The translations under genes were made by a program, and so were the position numbers. Shown here in pieces: positions 5,369 through 49,420 of a stretch of DNA of 50,013 bases (its first letter is position 1; each line of letters begins with the position of its first letter). The DNA lies in the sequence record OZ346186.1; one strand, written 5' to 3'. Origin of the DNA: a phage. Below the pieces are notes generated by a model. That model saw only the letters and a list, made by a program, of their open reading frames with translations, was not told where the DNA came from and did not search any database.

Positions 5369-5803
5369 ATGAGTGATTATTCAGTCATTGTTGGCGCTGA
5401 GTCGCCAGGGTGCATGGTCGATTCTTCAATAATGGTGATTAACGGATCTTTCGTGTGCGGAGATGAATTTATTGCGCCAGGTAAGATTGTGCGACTATCA
5501 CATATAACAAATGGATACAAAATAGCAAGTGTTAATGGGGATCTCGTTATTGGCGTGGCAGTAAGGCCGCCGGACTCGTGCATATATGAGGAGGGCGATC
5601 CAGTTAATGTGGTTAGTCGAGGTAATGTTTGGTGCTTAACTTATGAGAGCGAAGCGCCAGAATATGGAGATAAAGTATTTGTAACGCAAGATGGAGATGT
5701 GGCATACAGTGAAGGCGACTTGCTGATTGGTTGGATCTTTACTGGCGAACATGTAAAGGTTGATCATGATTCATATATTGTCGGGGTAAGCATTGACCCA
5801 TAA
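5369..5803 (+). CDS. head structural protein (paralog of previous gene)
   Basis: 144 aa; similar Gly/Val-rich pattern to 4811..5323. Confidence 0.5.
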   Translation: MSDYSVIVGAESPGCMVDSSIMVINGSFVCGDEFIAPGKIVRLSHITNGYKIASVNGDLVIGVAVRPPDSCIYEEGDPVNVVSRGNVWCLTYESEAPEYGDKVFVTQDGDVAYSEGDLLIGWIFTGEHVKVDHDSYIVGVSIDP

Positions 5804-5815
5804 CACAAAATTATG

Positions 5816-5843
5816 TTGCACGTTTAACAAAAAATGCTATCAT
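5816..5843 (+). promoter_or_regulatory. sigma70-like promoter TTGCAC-16-TATCAT upstream of major capsid gene, with an inverted box copy in its spacer
   Basis: -35 5816-5821, -10 5838-5843; box reverse complement 5822-5840. Confidence 0.4.
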
Positions 5844-9544: not shown

Positions 9545-9581
9545 TACTGTACAATCATGCTACACGATTCATAATCAATTC

Positions 9582-9600
9582 TTTTAACAAAAAGTGCTAT
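9582..9600 (-). promoter_or_regulatory. box copy in orientation opposite to the late operon
   Basis: plus strand reads TTTTAACAAAAAGTGCTAT between terminator and chaperone gene. Confidence 0.35.
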
Positions 9601-20223: not shown

Positions 20224-20267
20224 ACTATACACGATCTTGCGGCGGTCGTTTAGCAAAAAGTGCTATT
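20224..20267 (-). promoter_or_regulatory. conserved box (variant) + TATAGT, promoter cassette for Cor-like lipoprotein gene
   Basis: minus-strand box 20249-20267, -10-like 20224-20229, 18-nt spacer. Confidence 0.5.
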
Positions 20268-41385: not shown

Positions 41386-41638
41386 GGCATTAATTGGAGT
41401 TTTGATTGCAATTGCTACCCTGACCGGATGCGAAAAGGCATCGGAATCAACGGTTGTCGTAGGCGTGGAGTCAGATTTCAAAGTCGGTCGCCTGTTCACT
41501 GTTGACGGATGCACAGCATACAGATTCTATGATAACGGTCGCGCGATCTATTACACCAATTGCAAAGGCGCAACGGATAGCACGTACAACAGCGGAAAGA
41601 ACGTAATGCACCAGCAAGTCACAACAGATATTAAATAG
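41378..41638 (+). CDS. lipoprotein
   Basis: 86 aa; signal peptide MNKALIGVLIAIATLTGC nearly identical to that of the Cor-like gene; stop TAG embedded in box. Confidence 0.55.
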   Translation: MNKALIGVLIAIATLTGCEKASESTVVVGVESDFKVGRLFTVDGCTAYRFYDNGRAIYYTNCKGATDSTYNSGKNVMHQQVTTDIK

Positions 41639-41678
41639 CACTTTTTGTTAAAACGCCAGGCGCAAAACCTGGCATAAT
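41634..41678 (+). promoter_or_regulatory. conserved box + hairpin + CATAAT
   Basis: box 41634-41654 includes stop TAG; hairpin gccagg..cctggc; -10-like 41673-41678. Confidence 0.5.
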
Positions 41679-41710: not shown

Positions 41711-41896
41711 ATGGCACGTCGCATCACCAAAGACCTTAAAGTCCTGAACAAAGAAAACGTAGTTAAAATTCTGGTTATCTGGGGCTACAACGAAGAAACA
41801 GCAAAGCAGAAGGTAGAGGCAGGTTATGACCTGGCTGTAAAAGCAATGCCAAACGACGACGCCAAAGGAATTGCAAACTATGTAGCTTTCTTTTAA
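41711..41896 (+). CDS. hypothetical protein
   Basis: 61 aa; SD gagga; conserved leader. Confidence 0.5.
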   Translation: MARRITKDLKVLNKENVVKILVIWGYNEETAKQKVEAGYDLAVKAMPNDDAKGIANYVAFF

Positions 41897-41911: not shown

Positions 41912-42097
41912 ATGAAAACGAAATTAGTCCATAAATCAGAAATCAAGATCGGCGATACTGTGATTCACAACGGAGAGCTTAGAACGGTTGGCAAAGAGTC
42001 AATAAGCCACGATGAATTTATGGGGATTTTGTTGTTCGGTGACTCTTATCGTCTTGGTTACAAGATGGTTGAGCTTGTGGAAGAAGTGAAATTCTAA
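41912..42097 (+). CDS. hypothetical small protein
   Basis: 61 aa; SD aggtga; pattern SEIKIGDTV...G.LRTV shared with 42345..42527. Confidence 0.5.
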   Translation: MKTKLVHKSEIKIGDTVIHNGELRTVGKESISHDEFMGILLFGDSYRLGYKMVELVEEVKF

Positions 42098-42141
42098 ATA
42101 GCACTTTTTGTTAAAACTCAAAAACGATAACCAGGCATAAT
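42097..42141 (+). promoter_or_regulatory. conserved box + CATAAT
   Basis: box 42097-42117; -10-like 42136-42141; followed by about 200-nt leader. Confidence 0.5.
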
Positions 42142-42344
42142 AAATCACATAGACGGGCGGCAAGGATTGCTGCGGGAGAGGAGCAACGCAGGGGCTTGAT
42201 CGAAGTGTCATGATTCCCAACCGTTAGGCCAGAACTATCACACTCGCCACCAGGCAGAACGCTAGATAGGTCACTGAGCTGAGGCTACCGACGAAGTGAA
42301 GCCCGTCACCAAAGATTAAACGATTATTTATGTGAAAGGGGTTA

Positions 42345-42527
42345 ATGATGGATAAGATCATCAAAATGAGCGAAGTCAAGCCGGGAATGATGGTTAAGTT
42401 TGCTGGCAAATATCGCCTGGTACTGGATAACTGCCGAAAAGAGAACATTCTCACCATTCGCGTTAACGGCAAGGCGCAGCTATTCGCCCCCACCTCAGAT
42501 ATTAATGTTGAGGTCAGAATTAAGTAA
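42345..42527 (+). CDS. hypothetical small protein (paralog-like of 41912..42097)
   Basis: 60 aa; possible start at 42348; preceded by about 200-nt leader. Confidence 0.5.
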   Translation: MMDKIIKMSEVKPGMMVKFAGKYRLVLDNCRKENILTIRVNGKAQLFAPTSDINVEVRIK

Positions 42528-42595
42528 TAAGCCAGGGCCGGATTTCCGGCCTATAACAAGAAATAATTTTGTTAAACCAATCAGGAGAAATCACC

Positions 42596-43501
42596 ATGTT
42601 AAAACTTGCTGACATTAAATTCCCGATCACCTTCGAATCTCGCGGCGTTGGTCATTTCATGTTTACCGACGAGAAGACATGCACTAAGTTTAACGAATAC
42701 GGAAGTCCAAACGCTTCAACAATGGAGATTGAACACTTCATTGAAGCGCACAATAAACACTACAACTCACTCAGAGACTACGGTTACGCAATGCCAGGCT
42801 ACACTTGCTTGCACTATAAGCCATACAGGGGCCAGGTGTTACCAGTGCGCTCACCGGAACGCGCAGAGATTCCGATGGTCCATATGAAAACCTGCGACTA
42901 CAAAAAGCTGTGGTGCTTAAGTGTGGACAATATCAAGTATCCGATCACGTTCCATACGACTGGTAACTCAACGATTCGCTTCACATCACGCGACAATGGC
43001 GTTTATAGCGATGGTACGAAATCAGAGTTGAAAGTTGATTTCTTTGTTAATGGTCACAACAAATTCAATCCACACAATGAAGAGGATAAGGTGTACTACG
43101 TGGAAGATATTACAAAACACTTGTTTGGAGAAACACCATTCGGCGGCGGAAAGACGTCAATTCAGAAAATCATTGGCGAGGAGATCCACAAAGCTGCTAC
43201 CGAAATGAAAGCGCCTGGAGGCTGTAAGATTGATAAAAGCGACCTTGTCACCATTCGTTCAAAGATTGGCGGAGTTGAATACGAGGGCGCAATTGAAAAA
43301 ATGCCGCTCGGCGCTTCAATCATCGGCATCAAAGACGACAACGGCGATTGGCATGATGTTTCTTTCCCGATCAAGCGTATCGAAGTGCACGACGACTTGA
43401 TTTGCCTCCTGGCGCATCATGGTAGCTATAAGAACAATCCGTTCTCCGCAGAGCTAAACATCAAGCGCGGAACGATGGTTAAGTGGAAGGTTAAAGTGTA
43501 A
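42596..43501 (+). CDS. hypothetical protein with internal tandem domain duplication
   Basis: 301 aa from ATG 42596 (SD caggag); two repeats each containing IKFPITF / IKYPITF. Confidence 0.55.
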   Translation: MLKLADIKFPITFESRGVGHFMFTDEKTCTKFNEYGSPNASTMEIEHFIEAHNKHYNSLRDYGYAMPGYTCLHYKPYRGQVLPVRSPERAEIPMVHMKTCDYKKLWCLSVDNIKYPITFHTTGNSTIRFTSRDNGVYSDGTKSELKVDFFVNGHNKFNPHNEEDKVYYVEDITKHLFGETPFGGGKTSIQKIIGEEIHKAATEMKAPGGCKIDKSDLVTIRSKIGGVEYEGAIEKMPLGASIIGIKDDNGDWHDVSFPIKRIEVHDDLICLLAHHGSYKNNPFSAELNIKRGTMVKWKVKV

Positions 43502-43574: not shown

Positions 43575-43805
43575 ATGTACATTAACAAGAAGATGAAATG
43601 CATTTCCGTTAACTATGGTTGCTCTGGCATGTTCAAGCCTGGCGAAATCTATATGGCGCAAAAGTTGAAATCATCAACCGGATCTTTTTACGTGAGCAAT
43701 AGTAAGGGGCATCGCATGTTCCTGAACGGCGGTGAAGGCACTAAGGTTATGGCACACGCTATGGTAATTGCTGAATTTGAGGAAGTGAAAGATGAAAACA
43801 AATAA
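43575..43805 (+). CDS. hypothetical protein
   Basis: 76 aa from ATG 43575; downstream of box promoter. Confidence 0.5.
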   Translation: MYINKKMKCISVNYGCSGMFKPGEIYMAQKLKSSTGSFYVSNSKGHRMFLNGGEGTKVMAHAMVIAEFEEVKDENK

Positions 43806-44013
43806 GCGCGTCAAGCACAAGTTTATTGATAATCATGGTGATTCACTTGAAGTATATAAGTTCGGAGATCTCGTGTTTATTGATGGCACGTTTGAAGGTG
43901 GACGCAGGCCGGATTTTAGGTCGATACTTACCGTTGACCAGGTGCGCAAGCTCGCGGATAAGTTAAATGATCTGGCAGATGAAATCGAATACAAGCAAAT
44001 CCATTTTAATTGA
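43792..44013 (+). CDS. hypothetical protein
   Basis: 73 aa; SD gaggaag. Confidence 0.5.
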   Translation: MKTNKRVKHKFIDNHGDSLEVYKFGDLVFIDGTFEGGRRPDFRSILTVDQVRKLADKLNDLADEIEYKQIHFN

Positions 44014-44024
44014 TAGGTTTGATA

Positions 44025-44564
44025 ATGAAAAAATACGAATTTGAACTTTGGGGAAGTAAATACCATTTTTCCACGAGCAAGCCGATTGTTATCGTTGACC
44101 TGGACGGCACTTTATCCGATGGAACGCATCGCTTGCACCTGCTACCGACAGAAGATTTGCACCTTACAGAAAGCTGGTCTGAGTTCAATAAGGCGGCTGT
44201 TGGAGATTCGCCGATTAAGAGCACGGTTGCAGTGGTTAACGGATTGTGGATGTCAGGATTTGCCATCGTTATCCTGACCGGACGAAGCGATGAAGTGATG
44301 GAGGACACCTGCAAATGGCTTAACGAAAACGGCATCAAGTACGATGCGTTAATCATGCGCCGCAAGGAAGACAACCGCAAAGACACAATCATCAAAGAAG
44401 AAGTCTTGCGCGCTATCGGCCTAGAAAACATCGTGTGCGCTTTTGATGATTCGCCGAACGTGGTTAAGCACTTCCGCAGCCTGGGAATCACAACCTATCA
44501 GGTCACGGAATACGACAAGCCACATAATCATATCCAATCGCATGGCGTGGAGGAATTGAAATGA
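44025..44564 (+). CDS. HAD-family phosphatase, T4 Pnk 3'-phosphatase-domain-like
   Basis: DLDGTL HAD motif I; C-terminal KDTIIKEEVL...FDDSPNVV resembles T4 polynucleotide kinase phosphatase domain. Confidence 0.6.
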   Translation: MKKYEFELWGSKYHFSTSKPIVIVDLDGTLSDGTHRLHLLPTEDLHLTESWSEFNKAAVGDSPIKSTVAVVNGLWMSGFAIVILTGRSDEVMEDTCKWLNENGIKYDALIMRRKEDNRKDTIIKEEVLRAIGLENIVCAFDDSPNVVKHFRSLGITTYQVTEYDKPHNHIQSHGVEELK

Positions 44565-44722
44565 CCTGGTTACTTTTAATCTTTGTCACAAGTTACAACT
44601 CCGCCGCTATTGAATCGCAAGAGTTCCACGGCGAATCAAGATGCCAGGAAGCACGAAAACAAGTTATTCTCCACATGTCAGATAGTGGGAAAGATGTAAC
44701 AGCGTTATGCGTTCGTAAATAG
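44561..44722 (+). CDS. 53-aa small secreted/membrane protein
   Basis: hand-translated; hydrophobic N-terminus MTWLLLIFVTSYNSAA; ATG overlaps upstream stop; stop TAG embedded in box. Confidence 0.4.
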   Translation: MTWLLLIFVTSYNSAAIESQEFHGESRCQEARKQVILHMSDSGKDVTALCVRK

Positions 44723-44762
44723 CACTTTTTGCAAAAACAGATTGTCGGGCTTGCTGTATAGT
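44718..44762 (+). promoter_or_regulatory. conserved box (variant ..TTTGCAAAAAC) + TATAGT
   Basis: box 44718-44738 includes stop TAG; -10-like 44757-44762. Confidence 0.5.
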
Positions 44763-44793
44763 AAGCCCATCTACAACAAACGAGGATTAAATC

Positions 44794-45057
44794 ATGGCTA
44801 ATAAAGTTGAGTTTTTCAAAGCGGTAGACAAGATTGACGGCGCGCCAAGTTTCTTTGCTATCCATTCCATTGACGGCGAAGACGTTGCATACAACGTGAT
44901 TAGTCGAGACGGTATATCAAAACTTAGTGACCTGGTGGGTTATATTGTGGCGAACGGGAAATGTGCATGGCCCGATTCGCCACGAGAGCCGCGCCGCCGC
45001 GACATGCAAAATCCAGTTCTGCTTTACACGCTGGTAATTGAAGGAGTCAACAAATGA
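44794..45057 (+). CDS. hypothetical protein
   Basis: 87 aa; SD gagga; downstream of box promoter. Confidence 0.5.
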   Translation: MANKVEFFKAVDKIDGAPSFFAIHSIDGEDVAYNVISRDGISKLSDLVGYIVANGKCAWPDSPREPRRRDMQNPVLLYTLVIEGVNK

Positions 45058-45239
45058 TTTGGTTACTTGTATTTTTGGTGGTTTTCTTTTATATTTCAGG
45101 CTTATTCATCTTCTGCGCGCTGGTGAAAACATGCGATTGCACGGATAAAGATCAGCCTCTTGTTCTGATGTTCTGGTTTGTGTGGTTTTGGGTTGCGCTT
45201 TACCAGATTGTACGGGATAAAAGCGGATTCAAGTGGTGA
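45054..45239 (+). CDS. small two-TMD membrane protein
   Basis: 61 aa, two hydrophobic segments; SD aaggag. Confidence 0.5.
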   Translation: MIWLLVFLVVFFYISGLFIFCALVKTCDCTDKDQPLVLMFWFVWFWVALYQIVRDKSGFKW

Positions 45240-45247
45240 TTCTTACT

Positions 45248-45272
45248 ATAGCGCATTCATGCAGTGCGCTAT
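45248..45272. promoter_or_regulatory. perfect 8-bp inverted repeat ATAGCGCA-N9-TGCGCTAT (operator or RNA stem-loop)
   Basis: read directly; half-site resembles the box core ATAGCAC. Confidence 0.35.
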
Positions 45273-45433
45273 GTTGAGATAACAACATGAGATCATGAAG
45301 ATGCGAAACTTCGAAAAAATCGTATCCAAGAAGAAGCGATACAGCTACTACGAGCACCAAGAGATGAATTAACGCTATCGCAAAAAGCGCCAGCGCAAAG
45401 GTAAACATTCCAGTAAACATGGAGAAAATCAAT

Positions 45434-46024
45434 ATGAAACGAGACATTATCATCCTTAACGGACCGCCAGGAGTTGGCAAAGATACGATTGCGGCATACT
45501 TAACGGGTCATCGTTACGCAGCGGTTAAAGCGTCATTTAAACAGCCTATGTTCGATATTGCATTCTCCATGCTTGGCGTTTACCGATATGACGAGTTCAT
45601 TGATCTGTATAACGACCGCGAGCAGAAAGAAAAGCCTCAAGCAATCTTGCAAGGCAAGTCGCCTCGCCAGTTCATGATCTGGATTAGCGAAGAAGTCATG
45701 AAGCCAGCTTTTGGCGAGCAATATTTTGGGGATCGCATGGTTGAGCAAGTACACGAGATGTACAGAGATTTAGCTGTTGTAATTAGTGATGGCGGATTCC
45801 CTGAAGAAATCAAGCCGCTCGTTAAGGCAGGCCATGAAGTTCACATTTGCCGACTGCATCGCGAAGGATTCACGTTTGATGGCGATTCGCGAAACTATAT
45901 TGACCTGAGCGGATACCATCACCGAGTCAAGCATTACGACTTCACAATGACTGATGGCGAGCCAGAAAAGACTGTTGACGAGATCATCAAAACTGTCCAG
46001 TGGAAACACATTAAGATTGAATAG
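45434..46024 (+). CDS. deoxynucleoside monophosphate kinase (T4 Dnk-like)
   Basis: P-loop GPPGVGKDT and QGKSPRQ segment resembling T4 gene 1 kinase; start 45434 has SD ggaga (track start 45419). Confidence 0.6.
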   Translation: MKRDIIILNGPPGVGKDTIAAYLTGHRYAAVKASFKQPMFDIAFSMLGVYRYDEFIDLYNDREQKEKPQAILQGKSPRQFMIWISEEVMKPAFGEQYFGDRMVEQVHEMYRDLAVVISDGGFPEEIKPLVKAGHEVHICRLHREGFTFDGDSRNYIDLSGYHHRVKHYDFTMTDGEPEKTVDEIIKTVQWKHIKIE

Positions 46025-46064
46025 CACGAATTGCTAAAAGCGGGGCGCAATGCCTCGCTATAAT
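46020..46064 (+). promoter_or_regulatory. conserved box (variant ATAGCACGAATTGCTAAAA) + TATAAT
   Basis: box 46020-46039 includes stop TAG of kinase gene; -10 46059-46064. Confidence 0.5.
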
Positions 46065-46094
46065 GCAAACACCAATCAACGAGAGGAAATCATC

Positions 46095-46496
46095 ATGGTA
46101 GAGTTAAACGACATTCGCGTTGGAACAAAATTTCGCGTAACCTGGGCAGATAAATATTGCGGAGTTAGTAAGGGCCAGGTTGTTACTGTGGATAGTATTT
46201 ATCGCGGATGCAGCAAAGACTTTCGCCGCCCACGCATCAAGAATGGCTATATCATTACTCGCCGTTTTGGCTTTGATCATTATTGCGTAGTGGCCACTCA
46301 AGGAGTTTTGATTGAGCTTCAGCGGATCAGCGATCATCGCGGCTGTCATGTCAAAACAACGAAGATACCATCTCAGCGATCGCGATACGATGCGCGCAGG
46401 ATGCGCAGGCTTGCACGAAACGCGATCAAGTTCAAAAAGCCTGGTGGTAACTTTTACCGAATGTACAAAGGGATTGCGCGAAATGCTGGAAAATAA
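46095..46496 (+). CDS. hypothetical basic protein
   Basis: 133 aa from ATG 46095 (SD gagagga); basic C-terminus. Confidence 0.5.
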   Translation: MVELNDIRVGTKFRVTWADKYCGVSKGQVVTVDSIYRGCSKDFRRPRIKNGYIITRRFGFDHYCVVATQGVLIELQRISDHRGCHVKTTKIPSQRSRYDARRMRRLARNAIKFKKPGGNFYRMYKGIARNAGK

Positions 46497-46614
46497 CAAC
46501 AACGCAACCAATCCAAAGCCGCCATTTGATTTTCATGAAATCATGATTGTGTTATTCTTTATTCTCTTAGTTATTTATTCAGTGAGGGCCGCACTATGGT
46601 TTTTAACGCACTAA
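46483..46614 (+). CDS. 43-aa membrane peptide
   Basis: overlaps both neighbours; SD aaggga; hydrophobic C-terminal half. Confidence 0.3.
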   Translation: MLENNNNATNPKPPFDFHEIMIVLFFILLVIYSVRAALWFLTH

Positions 46615-46859
46615 AACGAATCTTTAAACCTGAATACCGGATCGTTGCTTGCACAGAATGCAAGATTTATTATCTGCAACGCCGCCGCGTTATTAGTGGG
46701 GATTGGGAATATCTGACTGATGATGCTTTCGGCTTTTGGGCTATGGAGTTCAATAGCTACAGCGAAGCGCGTGAATACGCTAAAAAGTTGCACAAGTTCC
46801 GACCTTACAAACTGCGTTTGCTGGTTGTCAAAAAATGCGATGTGTGGGATCACGAATGA
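46596..46859 (+). CDS. hypothetical protein
   Basis: 87 aa; SD gaggg. Confidence 0.5.
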   Translation: MVFNALKRIFKPEYRIVACTECKIYYLQRRRVISGDWEYLTDDAFGFWAMEFNSYSEAREYAKKLHKFRPYKLRLLVVKKCDVWDHE

Positions 46860-47035
46860 AAAGAGTAATTATCATTTTTATTGCCGTTATCGCTGGTTGT
46901 TACCTGGCTTATAATTATAGCGGCATTGTTGAGTCAATCGGCGGGTTGATTATCTTCATGGCTGGTGGGTATGCTGGCTATTGTGATGGATTCGAAAACG
47001 GAAAGCGTTACATGCTGACCGGAAAAAAGAAGTAA
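46856..47035 (+). CDS. small lipoprotein/membrane protein
   Basis: 59 aa; N-terminal MKRVIIIFIAVIAGC with lipobox-like IAGC; ATG overlaps upstream stop. Confidence 0.4.
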   Translation: MKRVIIIFIAVIAGCYLAYNYSGIVESIGGLIIFMAGGYAGYCDGFENGKRYMLTGKKK

Positions 47036-47078
47036 TGCTAACCGCGCCGCTTCGGTGGCGCTAAAAGGAGGAAACAAA

Positions 47079-47366
47079 ATGGCTAAAAGCAATCGTAAAA
47101 TGTTGATTAACGCATTCGAAAAGGCGGCGCTTGAGCGTGGTTGGAATGACTCATTTCACACGGCAAACTGTATCCGCCGTTACGGATTCAAGAATTGTCG
47201 CTCATGGGCGCGTCAAATGGCTTCATGGTATGATCTTGATGCGCATTACCTTGATATGGATTGCGCCCTGGTTGAAATGATTGAGCAGGCCGCATTAGAG
47301 GATCGACCATTAACGCAATCTGATTTTGACGATTTTGTGCGCGATGAAATCTATTACATGAGCTAA
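47079..47366 (+). CDS. hypothetical protein
   Basis: 95 aa from ATG 47079 (SD aaaggagg). Confidence 0.5.
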   Translation: MAKSNRKMLINAFEKAALERGWNDSFHTANCIRRYGFKNCRSWARQMASWYDLDAHYLDMDCALVEMIEQAALEDRPLTQSDFDDFVRDEIYYMS

Positions 47367-47409
47367 TAGCACTTTTTGTTAAAACTTCCGCGAGGGCATT
47401 TGTTAAAGT
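47365..47409 (+). promoter_or_regulatory. conserved box + TAAAGT
   Basis: box 47365-47385 overlaps stop TAA; -10-like 47404-47409. Confidence 0.45.
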
Positions 47410-47441
47410 GTCCTCATTGAAGCGAAACAGAGGAAATCAAA

Positions 47442-47654
47442 ATGAAAATTCGAATCACCAGGGTTGACATTGACCGCAACGATGGAAGCATTACCCTTGA
47501 GCAATGCGGGTTCAAAGTTGGTGACATTGTAGAGGTTGACGGATTCTTTCGTGATGGTTCTTACTGCGTGTTAGCAATCCGCAACACAGAAGAAATTCGA
47601 ATCGGTGATAACATCGGCGTAAACCATGACGAATGCGAGGTAGTAGAAGAATGA
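47442..47654 (+). CDS. hypothetical small protein
   Basis: 70 aa; downstream of box promoter. Confidence 0.5.
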   Translation: MKIRITRVDIDRNDGSITLEQCGFKVGDIVEVDGFFRDGSYCVLAIRNTEEIRIGDNIGVNHDECEVVEE

Positions 47655-49413: not shown

Positions 49414-49420
49414 CAAACTA

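Follow-up and report, generated by a model that had tools for sequence, protein, structure and literature searches.

What relates the two small genes that lie between positions 41912 and 42527 of the phage sequence OZ346186.1? A first reading, made from the sequence alone, had taken their products, herein called P1 and P2, as members of a paralog-like family of small right-arm proteins, each behind its own box promoter. The window, meaning the whole stretch of 50,013 nucleotides that was analyzed, comes from a T1-like coliphage (Drexlerviridae, Tempevirinae). Its part from 40.5 to 46.5 kb is 92-96% identical to other Drexlerviridae/Tempevirinae T1-like coliphages such as herni, KarlJaspers, and slyngel, and in records of this kind almost all genes of that part are labelled "hypothetical protein." The explanation that we find best on the whole, and consider fairly probable, is that the interval would consist of two independent gene cassettes between promoter boxes and not of a recent paralog pair. 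Cassette 1 would comprise the box at 41636, a DUF7421 gene, and P1, whereas cassette 2 would comprise the box at 42099, a structured leader RNA of 156 nt, P2, and a hairpin (Table 1). P1 and P2 would herein be separate barrel proteins and the RNA a self-contained module. The leader RNA is mostly unannotated and was missed by the sequence-only reading.

The cassettes are delimited by a 19-mer box, TAGCACTTTTTGTTAAAAC, that occurs in 16 copies in the window at up to three mismatches (0.05 expected). The 19-mer is followed by a usually G+C-rich and often dyad spacer and then, in all but two of the listed copies, by a -10-like hexamer. The distance from TTGTTA to CATAAT is an unusual 22 nt, and a ribosome-binding site (RBS) with an ATG mostly follows ~35-40 nt beyond the hexamer. 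In the right arm, boxes at 41636, 42099, 43503, 44720, and 47367 precede, in this order, 41711, the RNA/P2 unit, 43575, 44794, and 47442, and a degenerate box at ~46023 with a TATAAT hexamer precedes 46095; other sites are, for example, 30169 and 31210 on the plus strand and 40244, 39367, 37315, and 34472 on the minus strand. Full-text searches of the literature with sequence strings and keywords returned no description of the box. The earlier statement that each gene stands behind its own promoter is correct for four of the five genes it named, since P2, 43575, 46095, and 47442 are each first after a box, but not for P1, which has no box of its own and is the second gene of its unit, 15 nt 3' of 41711..41896. 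In P2, the leader moves the gene to ~200 nt from its promoter as opposed to the usual 35-40 nt.

That the genes are promoter-flanked cassettes is borne out by their independent presence or absence in relatives: KarlJaspers has P1 and lacks P2, MatMar has P2 and lacks P1, and both phages retain the box promoter at 42099. In Klebsiella weberviruses, P2 occurs in a different context. The boxes abut the stop codons of the upstream genes, and indels of MatMar and KarlJaspers relative to the window start at identical boxes, which suggests that recombination at the boxes shuffles the cassettes. The identical stretches of 19-22 bp would in this case serve as recombination linkers. As observations of their own, minus-strand boxes at 9581-9599, 5821-5839, and 20247-20265 lie inside the left arm, where the composition suggests plus-strand genes, and ~45 nt beyond the copy at 9599 (minus strand) a hairpin GGGGCG-CAA-CGCCCC may be the sign of a short antisense transcript. 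Read from the opposite strand, the box dyad with GTTTTAACAAAAAG behind it would look terminator-like.

The leader RNA begins ~4 nt past the inferred transcription start and ends ~40 nt before the start codon of P2. A blastn search with the P2 leader matches 229 phage records. The RNA is full length in ~21 Tempevirinae. HeidiAbel_Bas97 and Serratia phage MQ-4 match it over ~150 nt (81-82% identity), dozens of Dhillonvirus genomes over a core of 50 nt (92% identity), and phage Motto over a longer stretch (query positions 19-97, 92% identity). Alignments of five and then of 22 copies exhibit long invariant blocks between segments that change in a compensatory fashion; one hairpin, for instance, reads CGCC-ACCA-GGCA, CCG-GAAA-CGG, CCC-GAAA-GGG, or CUC-GAAA-GAG across the phages. 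RNAalifold recovered the structure only partly from the raw MAFFT alignment. Because the register of three helices differs between the clades in that alignment, the seven helices were assigned by hand, and a covariance model was then built and tested. Searches with this model yield 39 full-length copies from GenBank, IMG/VR, and metagenomes; they score 102-186 bits and belong to three clades. On the alignment fitted to the model, 91.5% of the cells are paired as opposed to 22-39% in slid controls, and changes on both sides of a pair occur in 18 of the 34 pairs, with values that none of 500 shuffles reaches. The covariation signal is carried by helix P1 (six of eight pairs), helix P5 (four of six), helix P6 (five of five), and helix P7 (three of three). 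An alignment of eight sequences made by MAFFT only is 88% paired and contains 15 pairs with double changes. The leader RNA is an unannotated, strongly supported structured element.

The same region is, judged by its pattern of substitutions, non-coding. The variable columns are spread evenly over the codon phases (24/27/24), the clades differ by indels of 1 and 2 nt, and stop codons are present in all three plus-strand frames of the window copy. Herein, 71% of the paired columns vary as opposed to 31% of the unpaired ones, and about half of the nucleotides are invariant, concentrated in the junctions. Annotated coding sequences overlap the RNA in MatMar (CDS0071, L002 1521-1763, minus strand), in HeidiAbel (Bas97_0052, L024 1551-1670), and in Oekolampad, where the start of bas18_0048 (L080 8412-9125) is extended upstream; such GenBank entries probably represent spurious genes or begin too far upstream.

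A comparison with Rfam 15 (4227 families) gave no credible match for five phages carrying the RNA; the window was searched at the gathering score, 42050-42400 at E <= 10, and the four other carrier phages at E <= 1. ARAGORN detects no tRNA or tmRNA in the window, and full-text searches with sequence strings and keywords found no description of the RNA in the literature. A link to the guide RNAs of TnpB/IscB (ωRNA) via the conserved 3' block ACCGACGAAG was dropped since the literature match is a coincidental spacer sequence. A pattern scan of one genome per species (185,579 species) returned seven matches, six of them due to chance and one a full-length copy (177 bits) in QFQS01000013.1 (L046 4912-5066). 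This contig of 42.7 kb, the size of a phage genome, is labelled as part of a metagenome-assembled genome of Cereibacter sphaeroides and is probably a mis-binned phage contig in this alphaproteobacterial assembly. Of the matches in metagenomes, 15 are true copies, none of them outside the three clades, and 11 are due to chance. The RNA is absent from 5,426 complete Escherichia coli genomes.

In every clade, a -10-like hexamer lies ~8 nt 5' of helix P1; only a few nucleotides of transcript would thus precede the RNA. It is always oriented in sense, just past the promoter, and precedes unrelated genes: 11 different downstream genes start 25-61 nt beyond the conserved 3' block, and their products include P2, an acidic lysine-rich protein of 170-180 amino acids, a lipoprotein, and small proteins of 49-76 amino acids. 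The linker between RNA and gene is A/C-rich and unstructured and leads to the RBS and start codon; no terminator is predicted between the RNA and P2. In Dhillonvirus, the RNA heads the rightward replication operon of ~9 kb that encodes a PD-(D/E)XK nuclease, SSB, DNA polymerase I, a helicase, and Dcm, and in HeidiAbel and MQ-4 it lies downstream of a primase or helicase gene. KarlJaspers has kept the promoter and the transcript start (CACATAG), and both the interior of the RNA and P2 are missing. At this site of KarlJaspers (L001 ~5600-5650, aligned to 42140-42165 and 42560-42580), a hairpin GGGCGGCAC-GGCGTCGCCC resembles helix P1 alone, which could be a deletion scar or an ancestral leader.

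Carriers of the RNA, which is shared horizontally, include the BASEL collection phages Oekolampad and HeidiAbel as well as relatives of the phage of the window. It is hence found in experimentally tractable phages, and because it travels with its promoter before unrelated genes, it offers a clean system for the role of a gene-independent 5' RNA domain in a virulent phage.

The proteins were compared on several levels. The coordinates and translations given for P1 and P2 are correct, apart from a detail of the P2 start: two adjacent ATG codons are present at 42345 and 42348, and the latter is probably the likelier start because the homologs begin with MDK and the Shine-Dalgarno sequence (42338-42341) sits 6 nt from the second ATG. 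The pattern shared by P1 and P2 is a short KOW-like β-hairpin, h-K-x-G-D-x-V-x-x-x-G. As a recurrent motif it is real and enriched: K.G..V occurs at seven sites in the 25 right-arm proteins as opposed to 1.2 in shuffles, none of 2000 shuffles reaches seven, and the density is 2.0 sites per 1000 amino acids in the right arm versus 0.44-0.56 elsewhere in the window. The KOW-type first hairpin pattern recurs in at least six further right-arm proteins. The echoes of the motif that had been noticed in 43575, 46095, and 47442 are present, but the list was incomplete and lacked 43792..44013.

As a pairwise similarity, the pattern is weak. BLASTP of P1 against P2 yields zero alignments at E <= 100. 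With family alignments of 22 sequences for P1 and 15 for P2, hhalign aligns residues 3-28 of both proteins, exactly the stretch quoted by the sequence-only reading, at 17% probability (P = 0.0015). A null set was formed from all 25 right-arm proteins against each other, thus 300 pairs, with profiles built from 20 related phage loci. Within this set, P1-P2 has a Smith-Waterman score of 39 (z = 4.3 versus shuffles, rank 3 of 300) and a profile-profile P of 0.0012 (rank 2 of 300), with probabilities of 12-20% overall, and neither statistic survives correction for 300 pairs. True remote homology generally gains from richer profiles, yet with a P1 profile of 64 sequences, drawn from a search of 1.84 billion proteins, the hhalign probability against P2 falls to 12.5%. 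Common ancestry, in the sense of a paralog-like family, is accordingly not detectable here; the sensitive profile comparisons on which that proposal had been made to depend give no significant similarity. The best pairs lie elsewhere, 43792-47442 by sequence (8/16 identities, E = 0.001 as a single test) and 46095-47442 by hhalign (best of the 300, P = 2.3e-4, 45%), and the top-scoring pairs all involve one short motif. The fit of the N-terminal motif of P2 to the WD40 repeats of LIS1 (E about 0.1) equals or exceeds its fit to P1, which marks the motif as a generic strand-turn-strand (β-hairpin) pattern.

The family relationships point the same way. Both proteins match PHROGs over their full length with high scores (E about 1e-33 each), P1 in phrog_3623 and P2 in phrog_8121, and these are separate, unannotated families although PHROGs uses remote-homology clustering. 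An exhaustive profile search assigns 650 clusters at 50% identity to the P1 family, which carries the signature GDT[VI]xHxG..T..FMG..LFGDSYxLG and whose members stand alone, in tandem, or fused; some members are found on Pseudomonas-derived contigs, in arrays of small genes without annotation. The P2 family, in contrast, has 18 members, all in Drexlerviridae. Past the first hairpin, residues conserved in one family have no counterpart in the other. P1 and P2 have a predicted fold class and a hairpin in common, and shared ancestry is not demonstrable.

The common fold emerged from structure prediction, one of the checks proposed with the original observation. The best AlphaFold2 models reach a predicted local distance difference test (pLDDT) score of 79 for P1 and 74 for P2, and both consist of six strands in the same order and two short helical turns. 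A structure search retrieves the same five top PDB chains for both models, with the N-domain of EF-P/eIF5A as the best match of each, and the predicted models superpose on EF-P domain I and eIF5A-N as SH3-like barrels. Sequence does not recover this relation: Pfam KOW and EFP_N give no match to P1 or P2 at E <= 1, PDB sequence searches with the P1 and P2 profiles did not find EF-P or KOW, and EFP_N ("KOW-like domain") matches weakly only three of 64 P1 relatives (E 0.016 or weaker). The hairpin pattern would correspond to the opening half of a KOW motif, as in L24 with IKKGDTVIVIAGKDKG; the Pfam KOW model gives no match. P1 and P2 would each be a single SH3/KOW-like β-barrel whose shared pattern is the KOW-type first β-hairpin. 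No annotated family of Pfam, NCBIfam, or PHROGs matches either protein, and for the role in host takeover or anti-defense that the sequence-only reading had suggested, the location of the genes in an early region speaks circumstantially at most. Early in infection, such barrels may bind a host macromolecule, perhaps RNA or a component of transcription or translation as KOW domains do; we propose this with low confidence. Searched against BFVD by Foldseek, the P2 model has 598 matches, many of them phage proteins of 55-70 amino acids at template modeling scores of 0.6-0.67, and the predicted small β-barrel is among the commonest folds of small phage proteins. Taken alone, P1 and P2 are ordinary. 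What is gained is a predicted fold for two unannotated PHROGs and a caution, namely that a motif common to small phage proteins can mirror a shared fold element such as the KOW-type hairpin and not recent paralogy.

Two other accounts of the proteins have to be weighed against that of separate barrels. P1, P2, and the other motif proteins could be true, highly diverged paralogs of one KOW-like barrel gene that was duplicated within T1-like phages and driven apart by an arms race. The identity of the predicted fold and of its top structural matches, the hairpin aligned at identical positions 3-28, the rank of 2-3 among 300 pairs, the four- to six-fold enrichment of the motif in the right arm, and the adjacency of two genes with a like promoter type would all be expected from this. 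We nevertheless hold it to be improbable, as the similarity by sequence and profile is insignificant and weakens with the richer profile, the two proteins fall into different PHROGs, one family is large and reaches Pseudomonas-derived contigs while the other is confined to Drexlerviridae, the residues after the hairpin do not correspond, and the fold is very common. At the other extreme, the similarity might be due to chance and a generic β-strand-turn-β-strand, the shared fold being an artefact of predictions of moderate confidence and the proteins bearing no relationship. The better fit of the P2 motif to LIS1 than to anything related, the failure of the pair statistics in the 300-test correction, and the low pLDDT of four of the five models of each protein speak for such an account, which is less probable still since two independent predictions agree on strand order and on the same five PDB chains and since the enrichment of the motif in this arm exceeds every shuffle.

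For the leader RNA, the compensatory changes make a role at the level of DNA unlikely. The RNA would form the first part of an early operon's transcript and act there as a self-contained module, whatever gene follows; invariant junctions amid covarying helices are typical of a specific pocket or interface, as in aptamers, ribozymes, and leaders that bind polymerase or protein. The likeliest role, to which we give a little less than even chances, is that of a leader acting in cis, which would control its operon either by sensing a ligand or a host factor or by modifying the polymerase that makes the transcript, an effect like that of HK022 put included. It is favored because the distance to the downstream RBS is short and fixed and the RNA has no terminator of its own. 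A processive antiterminator of precisely the put kind, folding on the nascent transcript and modifying RNA polymerase for read-through of a long operon, appears unlikely. Its promoter-proximal sense position at the head of multi-gene operons, its indifference to the downstream gene, and its conservation among phages of enterobacteria, hosts with a conserved RNA polymerase, would suit it. However, a search of the entire genome of HK022, the source of the put antiterminators, with the covariance model is negative at E <= 1; 156 nt with seven helices far exceed put; on the plus strand of the window, intrinsic terminators are not predicted between 42100 and 49420; and most Tempevirinae express the same operon without the RNA. 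Doubtful, if a little less so, is a trans-acting RNA, cut from the early transcript as a stable species of ~160 nt, which would titrate a host factor or act as its decoy, for instance in anti-defense or takeover, or else a ribozyme whose self-cleavage processes the mRNA at its 5' end. A mobile accessory module that is sporadic in Tempevirinae and common to unrelated phage groups fits this, as do the absence from E. coli genomes, the clustering of invariant nucleotides in junctions, known also from ribozymes and aptamers, the A/U-rich, unstructured linkers beyond the RNA, and two CAGGAU motifs, which resemble CsrA sites. Yet the RNA never has its own terminator and always keeps its tight, fixed distance to the downstream RBS, no known ribozyme family of Rfam matches, and GGA motifs number ~3 as opposed to ~2.7 expected by a rough estimate from composition made by hand.

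Several findings count against the favored explanation of the locus, that of two cassettes with separate barrel proteins and a cis-acting RNA module. Helices P2, P3, and P4 are nearly invariant and give no covariation signal, and the folding energy of single sequences is no better than that of shuffles (z = +0.7 and +0.9). Neither a conserved expression platform nor an alternative structure sequestering the RBS is seen, and unrelated downstream genes are atypical for a metabolite riboswitch. Most Tempevirinae are without the RNA, which is consequently dispensable in these T1-like phages. As for the proteins, the quality of the AlphaFold2 models is moderate, with a pLDDT above 70 in only one of five models per protein, and the equivalence of the folds was read from strand order and common PDB matches, not from a direct superposition of the P1 and P2 models. 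The common fold, the hairpin, and the rank of 2 in 300 further mean that a very distant shared ancestry may exist. In a further and more far-reaching reading, 42152..42307 would found a new class of structured RNA specific to virulent coliphages, a portable promoter-plus-RNA module exchanged among Tempevirinae, Dhillonvirus, and HeidiAbel/MQ-4-like phages. Within it, the invariant junctions would make up the binding pocket or the catalytic core of a new riboswitch, a ribozyme, or an RNA that reprograms host RNA polymerase or neutralizes defense, independently of the gene; we regard this proposal as evenly balanced.

The surroundings of the cassettes are uniform in direction, as the plus strand carries all genes from ~40.8 kb up to a strong terminator at 49420. 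The lipobox protein directly 5' of the first cassette may be a superinfection-exclusion lipoprotein of the kind found in T1-like phages. The G+C-rich hairpin after P2 lies, according to the alignment, inside the block that is missing from KarlJaspers and was not called as a terminator. The product of 47442..47654 has weak Pfam matches, to small β-barrel families only (DUF5666, CsrA, FeoA). Downstream of P2, the protein of 301 amino acids encoded at 42596..43501 (plus strand) repeats itself internally, with IKFPITFESRGVGHFMFTD at about residue 7 and IKYPITFHTTGNSTIRFTS at about residue 112; two stretches of the protein match phrog_7116, and it ends in the motif IKRGTMVKW. Duplication is plainer within this protein than between P1 and P2.

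Table 1 Features of the two cassettes and their surroundings in the window, and further copies of the leader RNA
Feature	Coordinates	Strand	Remarks
Lipobox (LTGC) protein, 86 amino acids	41378..41638	+	directly 5' of cassette 1; weak DUF4884 match
Box promoter, cassette 1	41636..41678	+	TAGCACTTTTTGTTAAAAC, G+C-rich dyad spacer, CATAAT (41673-41678)
DUF7421 protein, 61 amino acids, phrog_7717	41711..41896	+	first gene of cassette 1; Pfam E = 4e-42; PHROGs
P1, 61 amino acids, phrog_3623	41912..42097	+	predicted six-stranded small β-barrel; second gene of its unit
Box promoter, cassette 2	42099..42141	+	perfect 19-mer; CATAAT at 42136-42141
Structured leader RNA, 156 nt, seven helices	42152..42307	+	covariance model 163 bits; single copy in window
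P2, 60 amino acids, phrog_8121	42345..42527 (probable start 42348)	+	predicted small β-barrel, P1-like strand order
Hairpin GGCCGG-ATTT-CCGGCC, G+C-rich	42535..42552	+	3' of P2 stop codon; without T run
Echo gene with FKPGEIYM	43575..43805	+	first after box 43503
Motif gene with YKFGDLVFIDG	43792..44013	+	not on the list of the sequence-only reading
Echo gene with IRVGTKFR	46095..46496	+	behind degenerate box TAGCACGAATTGCTAAAAG (~46023) and TATAAT hexamer
Echo gene with two motif copies (FKVGDIVE, IRIGDNIG)	47442..47654	+	first after box 47367
Further copies of the leader RNA	L024 (HeidiAbel) 1509-1661; L025 1507-1660; L026 1479-1632; L027 1507-1662		and 34 other loci

Among known systems, the barrels compare best with the N-domain of EF-P/eIF5A and with the KOW domains of NusG/Spt5 and L24, with which they share the small SH3-like β-barrel and the first hairpin h-K-x-G-D-x-V-x-x-x-G; the KOW domains of L24 and Spt5 also appear lower in the structural match lists of P1 and P2. 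They differ in that the modification loop KPGKG of EF-P is not evident by eye and in that P1 and P2 stand alone as proteins of about 60 amino acids with no further domains. Like riboswitch aptamers, the leader RNA lies in a 5' untranslated region, has highly conserved junctions surrounded by covarying helices, and is closed by a P1 helix. Riboswitches, however, are expected before the genes of one pathway and with a recognizable expression platform, whereas 11 unrelated downstream genes and unstructured linkers are found here and Rfam offers no match. With HK022 put, EAR, and the rrn leader it shares, in position only, the character of a promoter-proximal structured RNA that heads long operons and is indifferent to the downstream gene: like put, it lies in sense between an early promoter and the operon it would serve. 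It is much larger than put, resembles neither putL nor putR in sequence or structure, and has no terminators downstream of it in the window. A screen of IMG/VR (Fremin, Bhatt & Kyrpides 2023, PMC10690425) reports 10,006 candidate structured RNAs, some of them cis-regulatory and upstream of phage genes, of which its main-text section headings name only two cis-regulatory examples, GP20 and GP32; the leader RNA likewise occurs in IMG/VR contigs, and the catalogue may include it. The arrangement as a whole is closest to phage morons and other promoter-flanked accessory cassettes. Most cassettes herein are without a terminator of their own, and the repeat at their borders is the conserved 19-mer promoter box of the phage itself, but as in those systems, small genes with their own promoter are flanked by repeats and are independently present or absent.

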